IMG/VR virus record: IMGVR_UViG_2923302340_000010
Location: 1 to 11,149 of that record
Reading direction: 5' to 3' (one strand)
DNA: 11,149 nt
From: a virus
Taxonomy: Duplodnaviria; Heunggongvirae; Uroviricota; Caudoviricetes
A model generated the notes under the pieces. It was not told the DNA's origin and did not search any database. It saw only the letters and a list, made by a program, of their open reading frames with translations. This document shows positions 1-11,149 of this stretch, in pieces. Within the stretch, counting starts at the first letter, position 1. Each line of letters starts with the position of its first letter. The position numbers and the translations under genes were made by a program.

Positions 1-285
1 TCACACTCCAACGCGAAGACAACGAACTTTCCTGAATGCCTTACCATTGGGCTGATGTAATCCCATTCCGGCATGTGCCCGGCTGATGGTTTCGCGCATC
101 TCCCCGAAATTATCCTGCTTTGCTGGTGGGCGTGCTGCCTTGTGGATACATTCCGCGCGACGTTTTGCCGCCTGTTCCCGTGCCTTGTCATCATTCGCCA
201 GCATGATGACCTCAGCCCACCGCGCCGCCGCTCTCCGGTACAGACCACGCGCTTCCAGTGCTTCCGCTTTGCTGTCGTGAATCAT
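1..285 (-). CDS. PerC-family transcriptional regulator-like small protein (94 aa)
   Basis: Complete ORF: ATG at 285..283, TGA at 3..1. The motif EARGLYRRAAARW matches my recollection of prophage PerC/Pch-type regulators. The ATG overlaps the stop of the upstream ProQ-like gene (ATGA), suggesting translational coupling. Confidence 0.5.
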   Translation of the reverse strand: MIHDSKAEALEARGLYRRAAARWAEVIMLANDDKAREQAAKRRAECIHKAARPPAKQDNFGEMRETISRAHAGMGLHQPNGKAFRKVRCLRVGV

Positions 286-812
286 GCGCCTGTTTTCTCC
301 TTTGCTGCCCGGCGCTGACGTTTGCGCTTCTCATTCAGCGCCATCAGCCGCGTTTCTGCGTCCTGTTGTTCCTGTGGTGTCACCTCGCCGCACGGCTGGC
401 CTTTCAGGTCGTAACGCGCCCCACCAGCAACCAGGGCGCGGTAATAGCGCGGAGACTGCGCATAAGATGCCAGCGTCGCACGTAATGCCCCTGGCCCAAA
501 TGCCAGCCCCCTGACGGCGAGATCCTGCATCAGGTCGTCGAATATCCCCACCTTAAGCGGCTTCGGTGCTTCCCGGCTGAATAAGTCAGGCCACAACTCA
601 GTGAGGCGGTTAACGCGCCTGCGGTTTTTGCGCTGGCGTTTGGTCATATGCCGCCACGGTGTCGCCCCTGTGGGCTTCTGCTGCGCGTTCTGATTACCGG
701 GCATCACTTTATATGCCGATGTGGTTTTATCCTGCTGTTGCGTCTCCTGTACCATTTTTGTGGCATACCGTAATTTCTGTTGATGGTCAGCTTTTCCATG
801 TGTACTTTTCAT
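282..812 (-). CDS. ProQ/FinO-domain RNA-binding protein (176 aa)
   Basis: The segment PLKVGIFDDLMQDLAVRG...GALRATLASYAQSPRYYRALVAGGARYDLKGQPCGEV resembles the ProQ N-terminal/FinO domain, with a basic K/R-rich C-terminus. ATG at 812 has no obvious SD; internal Met codons are possible alternative starts. Confidence 0.7.
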   Translation of the reverse strand: MKSTHGKADHQQKLRYATKMVQETQQQDKTTSAYKVMPGNQNAQQKPTGATPWRHMTKRQRKNRRRVNRLTELWPDLFSREAPKPLKVGIFDDLMQDLAVRGLAFGPGALRATLASYAQSPRYYRALVAGGARYDLKGQPCGEVTPQEQQDAETRLMALNEKRKRQRRAAKEKTGA

Positions 813-891
813 CGATATTATCCGTATTATCGTCGTTCCTTTTGATGGCTTATTTCTATAGAAATTTCTTTATTGCTTATTACCCAGATAA

Positions 892-1218
892 TTAACTGAC
901 TATTAGTGCTTTAATACTCAGGTACGCAGAAAGAATAACACCAATAAAAGAAGGGTACAGCAGAATCCCAAACAAAAACTTCATGTACTTATGTTTTCCT
1001 ATCACTTCGTTAATAACAGATATTATACTCAACATACATAATGCAATACTTATAGTTGCAATAAATGCAATAGTAAGCAAGATGAAATATCTTACACCTG
1101 TTTGAGAAGATAAATTTGCAATTATACCTATCATAACGAGACTCTGTATAATCCCGAAAGACAAAGCACCAGAAGACTTTTCCACTATTTCACTAAATTT
1201 CTTCACAAAGTAAATCAT
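892..1218 (-). CDS. Small hydrophobic membrane protein, hypothetical (about 108 aa, predicted multi-pass)
   Basis: Strongly AT-rich ORF. ATG at 1218..1216 is preceded by AAGGTGA at 5-nt spacing (the track start at 1227 is GTG). The protein is dominated by I/L/F/V stretches consistent with about three transmembrane helices. TAA at 892..894. Confidence 0.55.
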   Translation of the reverse strand: MIYFVKKFSEIVEKSSGALSFGIIQSLVMIGIIANLSSQTGVRYFILLTIAFIATISIALCMLSIISVINEVIGKHKYMKFLFGILLYPSFIGVILSAYLSIKALIVS

Positions 1219-1295
1219 ATATATCACCTTTATATAACGCTATGCTAAGGTTTATTTATACGATATCCCCAAATGGTATTCCATCACCGTACGGA

Positions 1296-1514
1296 TCACT
1301 CTGCTGGCCTTTTTTGCCGCCCGGCCGCACCGTTCGCGCACTGATTACGCTGTCTGCGATAACCAGACCAGCCACGTTTCGCCGTTCCGTCATCTGCCTG
1401 GCTGCGCGGAAGGGGAACTGCCATACTCGCCATTGCCATTGGTGTTCCCTTGCTGGTGGTTTTTGAGTGCAGATCAGCCACCTGCTGCCCGTAAGCGGAT
1501 ATTTGTACCGTCAT
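1296..1514 (-). CDS. Hypothetical small protein (72 aa)
   Basis: ATG at 1514, TGA at 1296..1298; the ATG overlaps the stop region of the upstream 66-aa ORF (ATGA at 1511..1514). No recognisable motif; a plus-strand ORF overlaps it. Confidence 0.35.
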   Translation of the reverse strand: MTVQISAYGQQVADLHSKTTSKGTPMAMASMAVPLPRSQADDGTAKRGWSGYRRQRNQCANGAAGRQKRPAE

Positions 1515-1711
1515 GCTGTTTGCTCTCCGGTTTTAACGTTGATGATTGTCACCTGTTCAGCTTCGGCAATCTCCCGTTCTGTCAGCGTGGCAAAGTTTGC
1601 CGCTGCCGTTGTCATGAATGCGCTTATCAGTTCGGGATGTACTTTCGCGTATCCTTCCCCGGCGTTGCGGTCGATAATTTTTATCGCCCCCCTCAGCCTG
1701 TGTTCTGTCAA
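1511..1711 (-). CDS. Hypothetical small protein (66 aa; start uncertain)
   Basis: The track ORF begins with TTG at 1711 and has no clear SD; an internal ATG at 1615 is an alternative. The sequence looks protein-like (AIKIIDRNAGEGYAKVHPELISAF) and lies just downstream of the iteron cluster. Confidence 0.3.
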   Translation of the reverse strand: MTEHRLRGAIKIIDRNAGEGYAKVHPELISAFMTTAAANFATLTEREIAEAEQVTIINVKTGEQTA

Positions 1712-1799
1712 ATCAAGGGCGTGAGATTGTGTTTTTTGTGTGTTTCGTTGTCACAGCCTTTACCTCACAGCAATAAAATAAAATTTTTGCATTTTAACC

Positions 1800-2030
1800 C
1801 TTCACCTGTTCACCTTTTTCCGTTTCTCCTTTTAATTCATTGTGTTAAGGGGTGAACAGTTTCACAAAAACTATTCACCAACTGTTCACCACTGTTCACC
1901 CTTAAAGCTCAACAAATAATCAAAAAGGTGAACAGTGAATAGTTTGATGAACAGTTCATGAATAACTGTTCACCCTATAACCAACTGATATAGAACACAT
2001 TTATTACAGGGTGAACAGTGATGAACAGTT
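1800..2030. repeat. Iteron cluster of TGTTCACC/GGTGAACA octamers (P4 ori/crr-type replication origin region)
   Basis: Direct copies of TGTTCACC at 1807, 1883, 1893 and 1967; inverted copies GGTGAACA at 1851, 1927 and 2010; degenerate copies (ATTCACC, ATGAACAG) at 1873, 1947 and 2021. AT-rich context, starting immediately after the stop of the primase C-terminal ORF. Confidence 0.75.
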
Positions 2031-2041
2031 ATTCCATAAGT

Positions 2042-2386
2042 TTAATTTTTGCCATCGTCATTTGTGACCGATGCACATGAGGGCATCCAGTCTTCTGAAT
2101 CCTCTGTCAGTATCACGTTTGAACGCAAGCCATGCTTCGTTTTCCGTTTCATATACTCCCTGCCGTATTCCGCCATTGCCCCTGGCATATCCTTACCGAA
2201 GCGTGTCAGTGTTACGGGCTTACCGAATCCGTGTGCCCTCATATACGCCAGATAGGCGTGATAGAGATACCTGCGCGGGCTGAACGGAATAATTTCAGCA
2301 TTACCCACTAACAGGCCATCGCACATTACCGACGACATGAGATAGCCGCAGAAGTCCACCAGCGAATCGCCCTCGCGTTTTATCAC
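2042..2386 (-). CDS. C-terminal fragment of the P4 alpha-like primase/helicase (putative origin-binding domain), split from the upstream ORF by an in-frame TAG
   Basis: Same reading frame as 2438..3841. The 17 codons between the TAG at 2438..2440 and the GTG at 2386 are open (read-through gives ...LLTRFSD*DEAKRLLYEQQKSEEALVIKREGDS...). The pattern YLYHAYLAYMRAHGFGKPVTLTRFGKDM resembles the conserved C-terminal region of P4-family primases. Weak RBS before the GTG. Confidence 0.6.
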   Translation of the reverse strand: MIKREGDSLVDFCGYLMSSVMCDGLLVGNAEIIPFSPRRYLYHAYLAYMRAHGFGKPVTLTRFGKDMPGAMAEYGREYMKRKTKHGLRSNVILTEDSEDWMPSCASVTNDDGKN

Positions 2387-2437
2387 CAGGGCTTCTTCTG
2401 ATTTCTGCTGCTCATATAGCAGGCGTTTAGCTTCGTC

Positions 2438-3841
2438 CTAGTCAGAAAAGCGTGTAAGCAGGTGGCGAATCACTACCGCCAGCTCTCCTTCTATTTTTTC
2501 AGCCAGCATAGGGTCACGTTCGTTCTCCGGTACAACTTCCGAAAAATTGAATATTACCCGACGACGTGATATCCCACCGCTGCGGTCACTGAATGACATG
2601 GCGTTATTGTTCACCGCCAGCACGACCGCCTGAATGCGTGTTGAGTAGGGGGCTTTATGTTTCGGGTCGATTGCCACCTTATCACCGCCTGTAATGGCCT
2701 TAATCCCTGCACCATCACCAGCGTAACGGGTCATATCCGGCATGATAATCAGCGAAAAGCCAACCACTAACGCACGTTCCCTGGCATCTTCCAGCGCCTT
2801 CATGCTTGCCGATACCGTGTTGGCCTTACCCGCCAGCATAGTGCAAATCTCCGCCATTACGCTTTTACCGCTTCCACCCGGCCCCGTTACCTCAAGAAAT
2901 AACTGCCAGTCGTACCGATTCGCCAGCACCATGAATAACGCCGCCAGTACGCGATCTGCCTTGCGGTCATTCTCAGCCACCGAACGGCGCAACCACTTCC
3001 AGAAATTCGGCGCATGTGTTGCCAGCGTTTCCCCCTCTGCTGGTGGGCTGAAAGGTAATTCACTGGCAATTAACAACCAGTCGTTTTTGTTATGCTCCCG
3101 AAAATTACCAGTTCTGGTATCAAATACCCCGTTACTGAATCCAATCAGGTTACGGGCTGTATTCCCCATTACGGGCAAACTTAACTTCATGGTATCGACC
3201 GCCGATTTGATGGCGTTCTGCGAATAGCTGATTTCCGCATCAATAAAAATCTGCGCCATAGTCCGCTGTAACTCTTTATCCTGTACCGGCTCCCATACAA
3301 CACCGTTGTAGTGGTGAACGGTGTCAGAATCCGCATTGATTGCCAGTTCACCGCCATAATGTGCCAGGAGAACTTCGCCGCGCTGGCTGGCTCCCATCTG
3401 ATTTAGTGCTGGCCTGGGTAGGTCAATATTTTTTGTGGCTAATTTCATCGCTGAAACTTCCCCACTCTCTGCCTGTTCGCGGATCCGTTGCAGGTAGTCG
3501 CGCCAGTTTTCCGGCTCCCGGTCGGTGATACCTTTGTATAATTTCGCGTCCTGTACGCCAGCCAGTGCCAGTTTTTCAGCGATAGCATTGATCTGGATTG
3601 GTTCGATCTCCCCCGCGAGATAGACACGCGCAAAGCGGCGTTCATCGTCGACAATGCGGATATTCGCCAGGTCTGCCAGTTGCTTTGGCCCCAGGTAAAC
3701 AGGTGGTACGTTATCGCCGTGTTTTCGTCCTTCGCTTTCAATCCAGTGTTGAGCATGGGCGTAAGCATCCGTCCCGGCAAAAATGATTACCTCAGTGAAT
3801 TTATCCTTCGGCTGATATTTCAAACTCGGTGCGTTTTTCAC
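2438..3841 (-). CDS. P4 alpha-like primase/helicase (D5/P4-family P-loop NTPase), truncated by an in-frame TAG at 2438..2440
   Basis: 467-aa ORF with Walker A motif GPGGSGKS. GTG start at 3841 is preceded by GGGAGGT and overlaps the stop of the upstream gene (GTGA). Together with 2042..2386 it would make a roughly 600-aa protein. Confidence 0.85.
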   Translation of the reverse strand: MKNAPSLKYQPKDKFTEVIIFAGTDAYAHAQHWIESEGRKHGDNVPPVYLGPKQLADLANIRIVDDERRFARVYLAGEIEPIQINAIAEKLALAGVQDAKLYKGITDREPENWRDYLQRIREQAESGEVSAMKLATKNIDLPRPALNQMGASQRGEVLLAHYGGELAINADSDTVHHYNGVVWEPVQDKELQRTMAQIFIDAEISYSQNAIKSAVDTMKLSLPVMGNTARNLIGFSNGVFDTRTGNFREHNKNDWLLIASELPFSPPAEGETLATHAPNFWKWLRRSVAENDRKADRVLAALFMVLANRYDWQLFLEVTGPGGSGKSVMAEICTMLAGKANTVSASMKALEDARERALVVGFSLIIMPDMTRYAGDGAGIKAITGGDKVAIDPKHKAPYSTRIQAVVLAVNNNAMSFSDRSGGISRRRVIFNFSEVVPENERDPMLAEKIEGELAVVIRHLLTRFSD

Positions 3842-4128
3842 TTCTTACCTCCCGCAACCAACATTGCCCGGATTTTTTTAATATTCGTGGCTGCACGTCT
3901 TGCCACTGCCTGTTGTTTGTTTTCAACCAGAATAAAATCACGCTCAAACTGACGGCGCGGCATTACGCAGTCATATTCGTAAGCCTCACGGCGGTAGGTG
4001 ATATTGCCTGGCGTAACGTGACGAATAACCACTCGTCCCCCACGTCTGGTGTCGCGGTAAATATCGCCGTGTCTGATTTCAGGCCGAGCGGGGCCGCTGG
4101 CAGTAAAGCCAGAATTTTTCTTTTTCAT
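3838..4128 (-). CDS. Hypothetical basic protein (96 aa), coupled to the primase start
   Basis: ATG at 4128, TGA at 3838..3840 overlapping the primase GTG. Arg/Lys-rich; no motif recognised. Confidence 0.55.
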   Translation of the reverse strand: MKKKNSGFTASGPARPEIRHGDIYRDTRRGGRVVIRHVTPGNITYRREAYEYDCVMPRRQFERDFILVENKQQAVARRAATNIKKIRAMLVAGGKK

Positions 4129-6047: not shown

Positions 6048-6896
6048 TTACACATGGCTGTTTTCCTCCATGCGGCGGGCTAACCAACGCTGCGAAAGAC
6101 GAATTAATTCAGCTTTCCGCTGGTGGTAGTCCTGGCCTAACTCAATCAGCGTGATATTGCTCTGCTCAAGGTAAGAAAGGTGCTCAAGCTGCAACGTGCT
6201 CATGTGGTCGCGTGGTTCGCCTGTGATGCCGTTCGCCAGTGCCCACTGTTTTGCAGTCATGCCACCCAGCACGATACGCGCCAGCATATTGGCTTCCGTG
6301 GTGTAGTGGTGCTGGAACGTGCTTTTACCCAGTTCAGCCCGGTACGCCTCCAGCGCGGCGCACATCGGCTTAAAGTAGCTGGCAACGGTGATACGGGCTT
6401 TCAGTTCCCGGCGTAACGCTGCGGAACGCACTGGCGCCACCTTGTGTAGATCCTCCTCGCATTTGATGAAATACTGGCGAACGGCGCGGCCTTGTTCGGT
6501 GCGTTCGACCATCGCCAGTTCTTTCGCCATGTTCGTGGAGATCAAATAGTCTTCACTGCGGCGATCACCGCCGCGCTTTGTTGTCCAATCAGAATCAAAC
6601 TGTTCAATATTTACACTTTGGTTCCCCCGTTTCGGGGAATCAAAGTACAAATTTTCTACAACTTCAAAATCCACGCCATTTTTAAATCCGTACTCATCAA
6701 TACGTCCTTTAATCCAGGTAGTGAAATCACGGCCTACCCCGAGCGCCTTATACAACGCTCTGGCGCTAACAATATTGGTTTCACGCCCGCCAATAACGCC
6801 GGAAATAACCGGGATAATTTCGCCAAAATTTTGCAGATTCTGGTTTTCAGGCCGAACGAAGCCCTGCCCCTGTACGGGCGTTTTTGGAAATTTCAT
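6048..6896 (-). CDS. Phage antirepressor-like protein with N-terminal AntA/Bro-N-type domain (282 aa)
   Basis: ATG at 6896 preceded by AGGAG; TAA at 6048..6050. ALYKALGVGRDFTTWIKGRIDEYGF and NMAKELAMVERTEQGRAVRQYFIKCEE match the conserved blocks of phage Ant/Bro-N antirepressor N-domains as I recall them. Confidence 0.7.
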   Translation of the reverse strand: MKFPKTPVQGQGFVRPENQNLQNFGEIIPVISGVIGGRETNIVSARALYKALGVGRDFTTWIKGRIDEYGFKNGVDFEVVENLYFDSPKRGNQSVNIEQFDSDWTTKRGGDRRSEDYLISTNMAKELAMVERTEQGRAVRQYFIKCEEDLHKVAPVRSAALRRELKARITVASYFKPMCAALEAYRAELGKSTFQHHYTTEANMLARIVLGGMTAKQWALANGITGEPRDHMSTLQLEHLSYLEQSNITLIELGQDYHQRKAELIRLSQRWLARRMEENSHV

Positions 6897-6973: not shown

Positions 6974-7171
6974 TCAGGTAGCTGTTCCGCGTGATTCTGC
7001 AATACGCTGATTAATCCACTCGTCAATTTCACTCTCAACGAAAGCAATCGCTCGCGAGCCAATTTTAACTGATGCAGGAAATTTACCTTGCCCCATAAGG
7101 CGATAAATCCATGCCTTGCTATATCCAGTTCTACGCTGAACTTCTGTTAAACGAATAAGCGTATTTGACAT
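6974..7171 (-). CDS. alpA: AlpA-family phage regulatory protein (MerR-like HTH; excisionase/transcriptional activator type, 65 aa)
   Basis: LTEVQRRTGYSKAWIYRLMGQGKFP...ESEIDEWINQR matches the AlpA/Vis family pattern (HTH followed by EIDEW). ATG at 7171 preceded by GAGGT; TGA at 6974..6976. Confidence 0.85.
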   Translation of the reverse strand: MSNTLIRLTEVQRRTGYSKAWIYRLMGQGKFPASVKIGSRAIAFVESEIDEWINQRIAESRGTAT

Positions 7172-7398: not shown

Positions 7399-8196
7399 TT
7401 AATCCGGCTTTGCGTTCTTTTGGCTGTTGTCTCGGTTAATAGGGCAGGCAGTCCTCTCTATGAGCGTTGCAAGAGCATTACTTGCCCCCCACTGCTTAAG
7501 CTCCCTGGTTATCGCTTCTTGATTTCCCCTGGTGGCAAAATCATTTTCTGGATCGTAATTGGCCCACTCTCTGTTTCTAATCTCAATAGCCTTAGCTAAT
7601 GGGTCTTTATCCCAGTATTTATATAAGTGTATCGGGCGCTCTTGCTCTAACTGCTCTATCCTTGCCCTTAACTCTGCGTTTTCTTTTTCCAGCATTGCGA
7701 TTTGGGATAATAAATCATCCTCTGTACGCAACTCTTTCTTTTCAATATCGCGTCCTTGTGCCTCGTCATTTTCAGAAGAGTTAGCGCCTTCCAGCTTCGT
7801 TAACGCGTCAAGGACATCGGGAAAAATTGCGAAAATTTCACCCCTTATAAATCCAATGTTCTCAAATTCGGGATCTTCCCAATAACCGGACACCAGAAAA
7901 CCATTTTCATCCCTCTCACCAGGTAAACAACCACGTTTCCGAACCGCATTCAGATTTCTATAAAGAACATCATAATCAAATTCATCCCGATACGGGTTAC
8001 AAAAAGATTCCAACAGCTTAAATTCATTTACTGTGTACAGGCGGATATGTTCTCCGTTTATTCTCCTGAGTATCCAAGTTATGACATCTGAAACATCATA
8101 ATCATCACCAGCGACCTTAAGCACGACCTCAAGAAATTCACGTAAAGAAATAAAATCTTTTTTGTATTCGTTTAATTCGGCATGAATATCAATCAT
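7399..8196 (-). CDS. Hypothetical acidic protein (about 265 aa) with central coiled-coil; AT-rich orphan gene between int and alpA
   Basis: ATG at 8196 preceded by GAGGTG (the track start at 8202 is GTG); TAA at 7399..7401. Markedly lower GC than its neighbours. Coiled-coil-like segment LLSQIAMLEKENAELRARIEQLEQE. No catalytic motif recognised. Confidence 0.7.
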   Translation of the reverse strand: MIDIHAELNEYKKDFISLREFLEVVLKVAGDDYDVSDVITWILRRINGEHIRLYTVNEFKLLESFCNPYRDEFDYDVLYRNLNAVRKRGCLPGERDENGFLVSGYWEDPEFENIGFIRGEIFAIFPDVLDALTKLEGANSSENDEAQGRDIEKKELRTEDDLLSQIAMLEKENAELRARIEQLEQERPIHLYKYWDKDPLAKAIEIRNREWANYDPENDFATRGNQEAITRELKQWGASNALATLIERTACPINRDNSQKNAKPD

Positions 8197-8324
8197 ACGC
8201 ACACCTCAGCGTCCTCTACTGTAGTGGCTGTACCAGTCCGTCGAGGTGTACGGATTTTCGGGAGCGACCCTAGACACAGCCTTTTCTTTCGTCGCTCAAA
8301 GTCTACTACTGTATACTCAACCAG

Positions 8325-9539
8325 TCACCCGCATTTTCCGAACTCACCATGCACCACATTTCCGCCATGCTCGAGCGAATCCATATAGTCGGCATACCAC
8401 TGGAGCATCTCCCGGCGACCATCCAGATATTGCGCATGGTTGTATGTGCCACGAATTGAGTTTTTATCGACGTGTGCAAGCTGTGTCTCTATCCACGCGG
8501 TGTTATAGCCCTGCTCATGCAAAATGGTGCTCATGGTGTGCCGGAATCCATGACCAGTAACCTTTCCGTTATAGCCGATGCGTTTAAATACTTGGTTTAT
8601 GCTAGCCTCGCTCATTGTTTTCCTTGGATCATTACGGCCGGGAAACATAAGCGGATAATTGCCAGTTAATTCTTTAATCTGCCCAATAAGCGAAAGAGCC
8701 TGCTTAGACAAAGGCACCACATGAGGGCGACGCATTTTCATCCGTGAAGCAGGTATCTCCCAGATAGCCTTGTTGAGATCGATTTCATCCCATAATGCAC
8801 CGCGCAGTTCGCCAGTCCGCAAACCGGTGATAATCAGTAGACGAGCCGCCATAACAACCAATGCACTTCCTGAGTAACTGGACAATGCCTTGAAAAAATC
8901 AGGTAATTCTTTGGCTGTGAGGAAAGGATAATGATTAGATTCATGACCTTGCATCGCGCTGGTGAGATCCGGTGCAGGGTTATACTCAGCACGTCCAGTG
9001 ACAATTGCATAGCGGAAAACCTCCCCGCATCGCTGCCTCACTTTTTTGGCTTTTTCGGTAGCACCGCGCCCCTCGATGCGCCGCAGCACATTCAGCAGTT
9101 CAAGTGGTTTGATTTCGGCGATTGGTTTTTTGCCAATGTAAGGGAACACATCTTTGTTGAAGGCTTCGAGGATGTCTGAAGCATAACCAGCAGACCATTT
9201 TTTTAATTTGCTGCTGTGCCACTCAAGGGCAATATCTTTGAAGGTGTTGTTTAACTGCGTTTCCCGGGCAATCTTTTCCTCTCGTTTCGCTTCCATCGGA
9301 TCGATACCCCCAGCGATACCCCTTTTAGCTTCTTCACGTTTTGCACGAGCATCAGCCAAGGTAACTTCAGGATACACACCTAGTGCTAACAGCTTCTCTT
9401 TACCAGCTACACGATACTTGAAGCGCCAATATTTTCCTCCACTAGGTTTTACCAAGAGATACAGACCGCCACCATCAGCCAGCTTGTAAGCCTTCTCTTT
9501 TGGCTTGGCAGTGTCTATTTGACGGGCATTGAGTTTCAC
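8325..9539 (-). CDS. int: P4-type tyrosine site-specific integrase (404 aa)
   Basis: N-terminal arm-binding-type region (LNARQIDTAKPKEK...GGLYLLVKPSGGKYWRFKYR), catalytic R in GLRTGELRG, H-x-x-R in HGFRHT, and a C-terminal Tyr in RGTYNH. GTG start at 9539 preceded by GGAGGT. Lies directly beside the tRNA 3' end. Confidence 0.95.
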   Translation of the reverse strand: MKLNARQIDTAKPKEKAYKLADGGGLYLLVKPSGGKYWRFKYRVAGKEKLLALGVYPEVTLADARAKREEAKRGIAGGIDPMEAKREEKIARETQLNNTFKDIALEWHSSKLKKWSAGYASDILEAFNKDVFPYIGKKPIAEIKPLELLNVLRRIEGRGATEKAKKVRQRCGEVFRYAIVTGRAEYNPAPDLTSAMQGHESNHYPFLTAKELPDFFKALSSYSGSALVVMAARLLIITGLRTGELRGALWDEIDLNKAIWEIPASRMKMRRPHVVPLSKQALSLIGQIKELTGNYPLMFPGRNDPRKTMSEASINQVFKRIGYNGKVTGHGFRHTMSTILHEQGYNTAWIETQLAHVDKNSIRGTYNHAQYLDGRREMLQWYADYMDSLEHGGNVVHGEFGKCG

Positions 9540-9705: not shown

Positions 9706-9781
9706 TGGTGCCGATAATAGGAGTCGAACCTACGACCTTCGCATTACGAATGCGCTGCTCTACCAACTGAGCTATATCGGC
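9706..9781 (-). tRNA. thrW: tRNA-Thr (anticodon CGU)
   Basis: The reverse complement reads GCCGATATAGCTCAGTTGGTAGAGCAGCGCATTCGTAATGCGAAGGTCGTAGGTTCGACTCCTATTATCGGCACCA: 76 nt, cloverleaf-compatible, anticodon loop TTCGTAA, encoded CCA. Position downstream of proA matches the E. coli proA-thrW arrangement. Confidence 0.95.
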
Positions 9782-9895: not shown

Positions 9896-11149
9896 TTACG
9901 CACGAATGGTGTAATCACCAATGCCGATCCACTTGTAAGTGGTCAGCGCTTCCAGCCCCATTGGGCCACGCGCGTGGAGTTTTTGTGTGCTTACCGCCAC
10001 TTCCGCGCCCAGTCCAAACTGGCCGCCGTCGGTAAAACGCGTAGAGGCGTTAACGTAAACAGAGGACGAATCCACTTCGTTAACAAAACGCTGGGCGTTG
10101 CGCATATCGCGGGTCAGGATCGCATCGGAGTGTTGTGTGCCGTGTTCACGAATATGGGCGATGGCATCGTCAAGATCGCTGACGATTTTAACGTTCAAAT
10201 CTAATGACAGAAACTCATCGTCATACTCTTCGGCTTTAACAGCCACCACCTTCGCGGGGCCTGCCTGCAACTGCGCCAGCGCAGCTACATCTGCGTGTAA
10301 TGTCACGCTGCTTTCCGCCATTTGCTTGCTTAATGCGGGCAGGAAGCTATCGGCGATGTTTTTATTTACCAGCAACGTTTCTACCGTATTACATGTGCTC
10401 GGACGCTGAGTTTTTGCGTTAACGATTACTTTCATGGCTTCAGCGATCTCTGCACTTTCATCAACGTAAATATGGCATACGCCTATACCGCCTGTGATCA
10501 CCGGGATTGTCGACTGTTCGCGGCACAGCTTATGCAGGCCAGCGCCACCACGCGGGATCAGCATGTCGATGTATTTATCCATACGCAGCATTTCACTTAC
10601 CAGCGCACGGTCAGGATTATCAATCGCCTGCACGGCACCCGCCGGTAAGCTGCAGGATTTCAGGGCGTCCTGAATCACCGCCACCGTTGCAGCGTTAGTG
10701 CGACAGGTTTCTTTGCCACCACGCAGGATCACTGCGTTACCGGTTTTCAGGCACAGGGAAGCAACATCAACCGTCACGTTCGGGCGCGCTTCATAAATCA
10801 CGCCAATCACCCCCAGCGGTACGCGACGACGCTCCAGACGCAGACCGCTGTCCAGTACGCCACCATCAATCACCTGCCCCACCGGATCGGCGAGGTTACA
10901 CACCTGACGCACATCATCGGCAATGCCTTTCAGCCGTGCGGGCGTCAGAGCCAGACGGTCAAGCATCGCTTCGCTAAGGCCATTGGCACGCGCGTCAGCA
11001 ACATCCTGCGCGTTAGCGTTGAGGATGATTTTGCTTTGTGCTTCCAGTTCATCGGCGATTTTTTCCAGCACGCGATTTTTTTCGCGGCTGGAGAGTTGCG
11101 CTAATTTATACGAGGCTTGCTTCGCGGCAATGCCCATTTGTTCCAGCAT
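9896..11149 (-). CDS. proA: Gamma-glutamyl phosphate reductase (glutamate-5-semialdehyde dehydrogenase)
   Basis: Full 417-aa ORF: ATG at the window end ([19 protein letters not shown]...), TAA at 9896..9898; aldehyde-dehydrogenase-like throughout; lies beside the tRNA-Thr gene as in enterobacterial chromosomes. Confidence 0.97.

Follow-up and report, generated by a model that had tools for sequence, protein, structure and literature searches.

The question raised by this locus is what a short AT-rich interval, set between GC-rich genes in the 11,149 nucleotides of viral DNA analysed here (the window), encodes, and what its product might do for the element and its host. The window as a whole belongs to an E. 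coli island that parasitises phages, a satellite of the PICI type at tRNA-Thr/proA. Gram-negative PICIs were recognised by the gene order int-alpA-pri, a specific att site, an iteron origin by pri-rep and the lack of structural and lysis genes in the visible part. In the window we found an integrase at the tRNA att site, AlpA, and a primase beside an iteron origin, whereas structural and lysis genes of phages are missing; the window stops at PerC, the far end of the island lying outside it. Reading from the att site, proA (Aldedh, 9896-11149) and tRNA-Thr(CGU) (9706-9781) are followed by the tyrosine integrase gene int (8325-9539), an int-alpA RNA (8213-8280), a 267-aa ORF without family between this RNA and AlpA, AlpA itself (6974-7171), AntA (6048-6896), an Icd-like segment, DUF4222 (3838-4128) and the D5-type primase gene pri (2042-3841; Pfam D5_N, DUF5906 and Pox_D5). 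Just downstream of pri sits the satellite replication origin (1806-2028), with nine iterons GGTGAACAG / GATGAACAG in both orientations. Then come a 66-aa PHROG-1231 protein (1511-1711), the remnant of an SSB gene (1256-1514; its N-terminal 44 aa match PHROG 44), the AT-rich interval, a ProQ/FinO-family gene (282-812; Pfam PF04352, E 1e-24) and PerC (1-285). All island genes in the window are encoded on the minus strand, and the variable “post-pri” region is counted from pri. Gram-negative PICIs have been described with iteron origins 3' of pri (PMC6092414), the organisation of these islands (PMC6092414, PMC11773190) equals the layout of the window, and EcCIMP1, at proA, matches too. Close relatives of the island were found at the same att site in E. 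coli.

The island in the window is decaying. The primase gene carries an amber codon at 2438-2440 (Q468, CAG>TAG compared with locus L015), and the SSB gene, the upstream neighbour of the AT-rich ORF, has lost about 116 bp internally, with the junction near 1379-1387 according to blastn against the intact SSB genes of L006 and L007. The C-terminal ...GDGIPF tail of SSB is still legible at 1256-1290 and its stop codon lies at 1256-1258; in relatives, PGAP gives the SSB gene as partial or frameshifted. On the downstream side, N-terminal comparison revealed that the first ~20 codons of the ProQ/FinO gene are in a new frame that begins from an ATG at the cassette edge, and PGAP notes this gene as frameshifted in relatives.

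An earlier note on this DNA had described a sharp shift of base composition at 840-1260 and had taken it as the mark of a separately acquired gene. The shift is evident: the AT-rich insert has a G+C content of 30% (813-1255; 0.304 for 813-1260), whereas its flanks reach 57-58% (0.571 in the ProQ gene, 282-812, and 0.580 in the SSB remnant, 1296-1514), and in 200-nt windows the interval 1001-1200 is the lowest in the whole 11 kb (0.300). The proposed extent was nearly right, the insert actually spanning 813-1255 and consisting of one ORF with a 37-nt upstream and a 79-nt downstream spacer. The ORF (892-1218) has a G+C content of 0.312 and the spacer at 1219-1260 one of 0.238. As a sign of separate acquisition, the composition holds in part. 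When the membrane-protein sequence was recoded with the codon usage of the neighbours, G+C became 0.41 against the ~0.31 observed, so that the hydrophobic amino-acid composition accounts for ~63% of the deficit; the remainder is an AT-biased synonymous choice, with a GC3 of 0.29 in the ORF versus 0.55-0.61 in the neighbours. On the ProQ side, homology to cassette-less relatives ends at window position 793. No convincing direct or inverted repeats flank the insert, no Rfam non-coding RNA family matched inside it, and consensus scans detected no minus-strand promoter or terminator around the ORF in the window; a promoter-like site with 10/12 matches lies within the ORF (1150-1121, minus strand) and could feed ProQ-PerC. 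The entire insert is 98.4-99.6% identical in ten E. coli genomes and five IMG/VR contigs.

The only long frame in the AT-rich stretch is the minus-strand ORF 1218-892 (ATG 1218-1216, TAA 894-892), encoding a protein of 108 aa. It has its own ribosome-binding site, as had been proposed: the Shine-Dalgarno sequence AGGTGAT (1223-1229, minus strand), which we take to be a 7-nt complement of the 16S rRNA 3' end, stands 4 nt before the ATG, and a purine-rich Shine-Dalgarno sequence precedes the ATG in most family members as well. When the 448-nt region was simulated 20000 times with a first-order Markov model, a stop-free run of at least 115 codons came up 15 times, and 20000 mononucleotide shuffles gave 46 such runs; the ORF length is thus unlikely by chance. 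Compared with L003, a 76%-identical copy that occupies the equivalent SSB-ORF-ProQ-PerC slot, the ORF has a dN/dS of 0.23. That copy, next to an intact SSB gene, ProQ and PerC, is present on two metagenomic contigs and one IMG/VR contig, and Citrobacter sp. S-77 has an annotated member of its cluster. All 15 near-identical copies keep the ORF intact, despite the decay of the adjoining SSB gene and, in the window, of pri; within this 98-99% clade we counted four distinct non-synonymous changes and one synonymous change, too few to interpret. By these measures the AT-rich stretch holds a gene that is translated and subject to purifying selection. The identical protein is deposited as AVS49269.1, “hypothetical protein”, and an I73T variant is found on at least 1000 contigs, every source labelling it “hypothetical protein”; PGAP left the ORF uncalled in all three RefSeq genomes examined.

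Presence/absence comparison, which the earlier note had called for, established that the gene is accessory. Of 5426 complete E. coli genomes, 10 carry the 431-nt cassette (word-11 blastn included), whereas 1760 match parts of window 1-2500, and relatives at the same att site lack the cassette. In the cassette-less elements L006-L008, SSB and ProQ are directly adjacent, with a stop-to-start spacer of 36-56 bp. The E189 island, which shares the att site, is homologous from PerC as far as window position 793 and again from 2152, within pri; all that separates pri and ProQ there is a 383-bp origin whose iterons differ, and the genes for PHROG-1231, SSB and the membrane protein are missing. It follows from this comparison that the whole region from the 3' end of pri to the start of ProQ is variable and that the cassette is a sub-insert of one variant. 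Since the ORF lies between the SSB remnant and the ProQ/FinO gene, it is placed in the variable region downstream of primase and origin, whose content differs among related islands; it is inserted between genes that are adjacent in relatives, and its G+C and GC3 deviate from theirs. The ORF is thus a real accessory gene of the satellite and not a part of its core. The proposed separate acquisition stands, but it is not recent: dS relative to L003 is 0.60 for the ORF and 0.59 for the adjacent ProQ gene, which indicates that the ORF has travelled with its neighbours since the window and Citrobacter-type lineages split. Islands at another att site, between yicC and dinD, share the stretch from the pri C-terminus to PerC at 99.7% identity; their integrase is only 29% and their pri N-terminal part only 82% identical to the window, and judged by these identities the sharing is a mosaic exchange.

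The small multi-pass membrane protein that had been read in this mobile element was borne out by the properties of the product. The 108-aa protein has a GRAVY of +1.29, and Kyte-Doolittle hydropathy gave three peaks, at about residues 18-36, 44-70 and 81-102. AlphaFold2, run on a 20-sequence alignment, predicted helices at residues 2-14, 16-36, 42-73 and 77-107 (mean pLDDT 75.6), so that a short amphipathic N-terminal helix precedes three predicted membrane helices. Hydropathy, the AlphaFold2 model and conservation together support all three of the latter. Predicted transmembrane helix 1 (residues 18-36, positions 1111-1167, minus strand; AlphaFold2 helix 16-36) follows the invariant S16-G17 and holds the invariant Q25 and M29. 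Predicted helix 2 (residues 44-70, 1009-1089, minus strand) contains the nearly invariant G57 and the invariant I69, and predicted helix 3 (residues 81-102, 913-978, minus strand) the conserved Y88-P89, G93, L96 and A98, of which G93 and A98 are invariant and Y88, P89 and L96 nearly so in the 20-sequence alignment. Lysine and arginine residues summed over the 20 family members number 119 in the N-terminus and loop 2 and 18 in loop 1 and the C-terminus; the end of helix 1 that faces loop 1 contributes another 29. Under the positive-inside rule these counts predict a cytoplasmic N-terminus and a periplasmic location for the short C-terminus, six residues beyond the last helix with one lysine (N-in, C-out).

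To place the protein among known families, we searched sequence, profile and structure collections. HMMs of Pfam, PHROGs, PADLOC and NCBIfam gave no match for the window protein and none that was consistent for the 20 family members. PHROGs, which includes phage exclusion and immunity families, did not match the window protein, and neither did PADLOC-DB 2.0, in which a “2TM effector” model was hit by two of the 20 members (E 3e-4), probably through membrane-helix composition. The sequence-profile search of the PDB returned Ninjurin-2 only (E 2.3), and fold searches returned generic helical bundles only. No homology to a known exclusion or defence protein was found, a point that counts against a protective reading. 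A class I holin of the lambda S type, defined by three transmembrane domains, N-out/C-in topology, a charged cytoplasmic C-terminal tail, a lysis-cassette setting and a holin profile match, resembles the product in its ~105-110 aa and three hydrophobic helices. This assignment is disfavoured: the predicted topology is N-in/C-out, without a charged C-terminal tail, no lysis genes (endolysin, spanins) adjoin the family gene in more than 20 contexts, the family is absent from 50,697 phage records, and a single member of 20 matched a holin profile (phrog_1129, E 0.1 only). Type I toxin-antitoxin membrane toxins have fewer than ~60 aa, a single helix and an overlapping antisense RNA; with 108 aa, three helices and no Rfam match in the cassette, the ORF does not fit this type.

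Relatives of the protein were sought in large sequence collections. An exhaustive HMMER scan of 1.84 billion representatives yielded 10 relatives, and a profile search of 5.8 billion clusters yielded ~33 homologous clusters, with identity down to 27%; the invariant residues span members 25-35% identical to the window protein. All records with a named host belong to Enterobacterales, and none of the 50,697 phage records contains a relative. Most members are borne by satellites and are not found in toxin/immunity arrays. In at least four satellite backbones (Hafnia, Klebsiella/Kluyvera, Pectobacterium and E. coli/Citrobacter), the family gene lies ~300 bp past the replicase on the same strand. 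Capsid-forming PICIs of Hafnia have the order pri, family gene, HK97-type capsid, protease, portal, HNH and terminase, with a promoter-like site, possibly an iteron, before the homologue and a terminator with a 9-bp stem after it. In satellites of Klebsiella, Kluyvera and their relatives, pri or an AAA_25 helicase is followed by the family gene, a lambda-E-like capsid, a D-like decoration protein and AlpA, and in a Pectobacterium island by the family gene and an NA37 protein.

Outside these backbones, a homologue of 46% identity on an IMG/VR contig (L020) lies amid PD-Lambda-1 (773 bits), a PD-T4-5-like gene and PD-Lambda-4_A (1639 bits). Another homologue, carried by a K. variicola plasmid, lies near a DUF4041 gene of the L020 type (PD-Lambda-1 in L020) and adjoins HicAB, with an annotated bacteriocin immunity gene 7 kb away. 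Among chromosomal islets, Imm53 stands directly upstream of the homologue in L037, Imm-NTF2 lies 8 kb from it in L036, an RNase toxin with its CdiI_2 immunity protein lies two genes downstream in L035, and a K. aerogenes islet has no recognisable neighbours. The members in L035-L037 thus lie by polymorphic-toxin immunity genes instead of phage-defence genes, an observation that runs against a phage-defence reading, and guilt by association is weak for a gene of 108 aa. The neighbours of the family gene differ from context to context and none of them is conserved, which suggests that the gene probably acts alone. Judged by these contexts, it is a small, unnamed and uncharacterised family that recurs in the “immune” slots of satellites and in defence islands.

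What, then, might the protein do? Our best reading, held tentatively, is that of a protective cargo protein of the inner membrane, most likely acting in phage exclusion or in a membrane-level abortive response. In this reading the ORF would be moron-like cargo, its product residing in the inner membrane and shielding the carrier cell; the likeliest target is other phages, whose genomes would be kept out (superinfection exclusion) or whose infection would meet an abortive response at the membrane. Expression would probably occur by read-through from the satellite's primase-to-PerC operon; no promoter or terminator was found around the ORF in the window. The exclusion or abortive-infection reading is favoured by genomic association only, namely by the post-pri slot, by the copy in the L020 defence island and by the K. 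variicola plasmid copy near the DUF4041 gene. More tentatively still, it is possible that the proteins form a new single-gene family of inner-membrane “gatekeepers”, to date found in Enterobacterales alone among the named hosts, spread mainly by satellites (classical PICIs, capsid-forming PICIs and satellites with E/D capsids) and unrelated in sequence to known exclusion, defence and immunity proteins; they would block either the entry of phage genomes or membrane-inserting toxins.

Known systems offer two comparisons for the preferred protective reading. Small exclusion proteins of the inner membrane include T4 Imm. Another is HK97 gp15, encoded by a phage moron (cited in PMC11364771). Like such exclusion morons, the ORF is an extra gene between normally adjacent genes, deviates in composition and encodes a small, predicted inner-membrane product; unlike them, it has no promoter or terminator of its own detectable in the window (a terminator follows the Hafnia copy), has no PHROG match and is carried by satellites and not by phages. 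The accessory region of PICIs “adjacent to the pri gene” was described in 2024 to carry anti-phage genes, among them the Tai genes for tail-assembly inhibition (PMC11364771). The ORF shares the position of this immune region, directly behind primase and origin in an int-alpA-pri satellite, and in both cases the content varies between similar islands and single genes are missed by PADLOC (PMC11364771). A Tai identity was nevertheless ruled out on size, Tai proteins being about twice as large (TaiEcA is reported at 26.1 kDa, and the ORF product is a membrane protein of 108 aa), and on distribution, as most Tai homologues are phage-borne and the ORF family is without relatives in the phage records searched.

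The protein could instead be an orphan that confers immunity to a pore-forming bacteriocin or a polymorphic toxin, acting like the E1/Ia-type colicin immunity proteins by helix-helix contact with the membrane-inserted toxin domain and serving as fitness cargo of the satellite; we consider this unlikely. ImmE1 has a three-helix topology. The immunity genes of colicins E1 and Ib are much alike the ORF in their 113 and 115 codons, hydrophobic products and G+C contents of 0.29 and 0.34 on plasmids of ~0.5 (108 aa and 0.31 for the ORF), and they too reside on mobile elements. The neighbourhoods of several relatives point the same way, with Imm53 (L037), Imm-NTF2 (L036), the RNase toxin and CdiI_2 pair (L035) and the bacteriocin immunity gene on the K. 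variicola plasmid. The likeness does not, however, extend to sequence or profile: homology to E1/Ia-type colicin immunity was rejected with hhalign probabilities of 0.3% and 0.7% for ImmE1 and ImmIb, each below 1%, and no immunity family of Pfam or NCBIfam was matched. No colicin gene is present in the window or in the locus of any homologue, linked toxin genes are missing from the window and from all satellite contexts, and the family, as described above, resides mostly in satellites and not in toxin/immunity arrays.

It is likewise improbable that the gene has a host-adaptive role unrelated to conflict, for example in stress or envelope physiology, or that it is a passenger without current benefit, kept by linkage. 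Such a reading accords with the outcome of our searches, which gave no functional homology of any kind, and with the decay of the island in the window, marked by the amber codon in pri and the deletion in SSB. It is opposed by the dN/dS of 0.23 and by residues that remain invariant across members of 25-35% identity, as well as by the recurrence of the gene in accessory slots of mobile elements and in a defence island.

A role in the life cycle of the satellite itself appears more doubtful still. The protein, made on induction, would tune lysis of the helper phage through the helper's holin or antiholin, hastening or postponing it to the advantage of the satellite, in the manner of LidI. The precedent is set by the LidI proteins of the Vibrio cholerae PLE, which are satellite-encoded and 66 or 121 aa long, contain transmembrane domains, had earlier escaped annotation and are made only upon infection (PMC7182436); by description only, the ORF is similarly a small transmembrane protein of a satellite, a sequence orphan and overlooked by annotation, as by PGAP in the three RefSeq genomes. 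The ORF is moreover co-oriented within the main satellite operon, and in four backbones the family gene lies between the replication and the packaging or late genes. The apparent lack of a promoter of its own, no promoter or terminator being detected around it in the window, would tie its expression to satellite induction, which suits a life-cycle role better than a standing defence. LidI, however, is conserved throughout the PLEs and acts on the lysis inhibition of ICP1, whereas the ORF is sporadic and missing from the great majority of close islands, which presumably have the same life cycle, and it occurs also outside satellites, standing alone on a plasmid and in islets of the chromosome that lack satellite genes. 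The hallmarks of a holin are missing as well, given the six-residue C-terminus with one basic residue, the predicted N-in topology and the lack of lysis neighbours. Finally, the view that the stretch is no gene at all but an AT-rich spacer, such as a nucleoid-protein binding region or a promoter island, with a chance open frame, could draw on the missing PGAP calls and on the promoter-like site inside the ORF that could serve ProQ-PerC, but it is largely refuted and hardly tenable in view of the ORF-length statistics, the frame conserved at a dN/dS of 0.23, protein homologues down to 27% identity with conserved motifs and a Shine-Dalgarno sequence of their own, and the lack of an Rfam match in the stretch.

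The AT-rich interval of this satellite thus encodes a member of an uncharacterised family within the familiar category of accessory satellite cargo. Its history also points to an annotation gap, since short AT-rich ORFs in the hot spots of satellites can escape automatic annotation. If inactive, the ORF would be an ordinary orphan cargo gene. It is now recognised that satellites carry anti-phage and competition genes, and that they do so in a small number of fixed slots; the ORF is a small, cheaply testable candidate for such a gene, and if active, its membrane protein would add a minimal membrane-acting system.

The strongest sigma-70-like match of the region (TATACA-18-TATAAT, 10/12) was located at 1121-1150 on the minus strand, within the membrane-protein ORF and directed toward ProQ-PerC. 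With this predicted site, the AT-rich insert could provide the genes downstream with an internal promoter. In the capsid-forming Hafnia cf-PICI (L011), a strong terminator-like hairpin with a 9-bp stem and a T run (10472-10492) stands between the membrane-protein gene and the capsid gene, a signal which points to the membrane-protein gene as the last of its transcription unit there. The spacer separating the membrane-protein gene from ProQ in the window contains a perfect 14-bp palindrome, ATTTCTATAGAAAT, at 852-865; it shows no conservation in the 76% relatives and may be a chance product of AT-rich DNA. On the L020 IMG/VR contig, a 46% homologue of the membrane protein lies together with PD-Lambda-1, a PD-T4-5-like gene and PD-Lambda-4_A inside 9 kb (4605-13770), a stretch that makes up a compact defence island.

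Downstream of the cassette, codons 1 to ~20 of ProQ/FinO (755-812) are in a frame that differs from that of the cassette-less relatives: the present start is the ATG at the edge of the cassette (812), the equivalent of the original ATG is found at about 795-797, and the gene is flagged as frameshifted by PGAP in relatives. Upstream, the SSB gene (1256-1514) has lost ~116 bp internally between short repeats, with the junction near 1379-1387, and its reading frame is shifted. The ...GDGIPF tail at the C-terminus can still be read, and an intact SSB of 140 aa is encoded in the 76% relatives (L003 and L019).

The interval from int to alpA, which is the 5' accessory region of PICIs, holds a 267-aa minus-strand ORF (7399-8202, G+C 0.415) that gave no significant match in Pfam, PADLOC or NCBIfam; its position is occupied by a DUF6387 protein in Hafnia islands, and we consider it a candidate for a further cargo gene. 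Between this ORF and the integrase gene, the int-alpA RNA (Rfam RF02996, 45.5 bits) was identified at 8213-8280 on the minus strand. The 384-aa minus-strand ORF at 4901-6055 matches Icd-like cell-division inhibitors in its last ~50 residues only, and is probably over-extended; the equivalent region in relatives is annotated with Icd-like genes of 67-121 aa and plus-strand YlcI/YnfO genes.

The D5-type primase gene (pri) is broken by an in-frame amber codon at 2438-2440 (minus strand), a Q468 CAG>TAG change, when compared with the IMG/VR copy L015 (97% identical), that splits the 604-aa primase into two ORFs of 467 and 114 aa; the island carried by this strain is possibly replication-defective. 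The module from the pri C-terminus to PerC (1-2386) is 99.7% identical to that of the E. coli A41 and ABU 83972 islands, inserted between yicC and dinD, whereas their pri N-terminal part and integrase share only 82% and 29% identity with those of the window, which places a recombination breakpoint inside pri. The origin carries nine iterons (1806-2028; GGTGAACAG / GATGAACAG), while E189, an island that shares the att site, carries another iteron, CTGTCTACC (L030 3786-4168), alongside a diverged pri 3' end. This pairing suggests that primase specificity and origin are exchanged jointly, as a unit.
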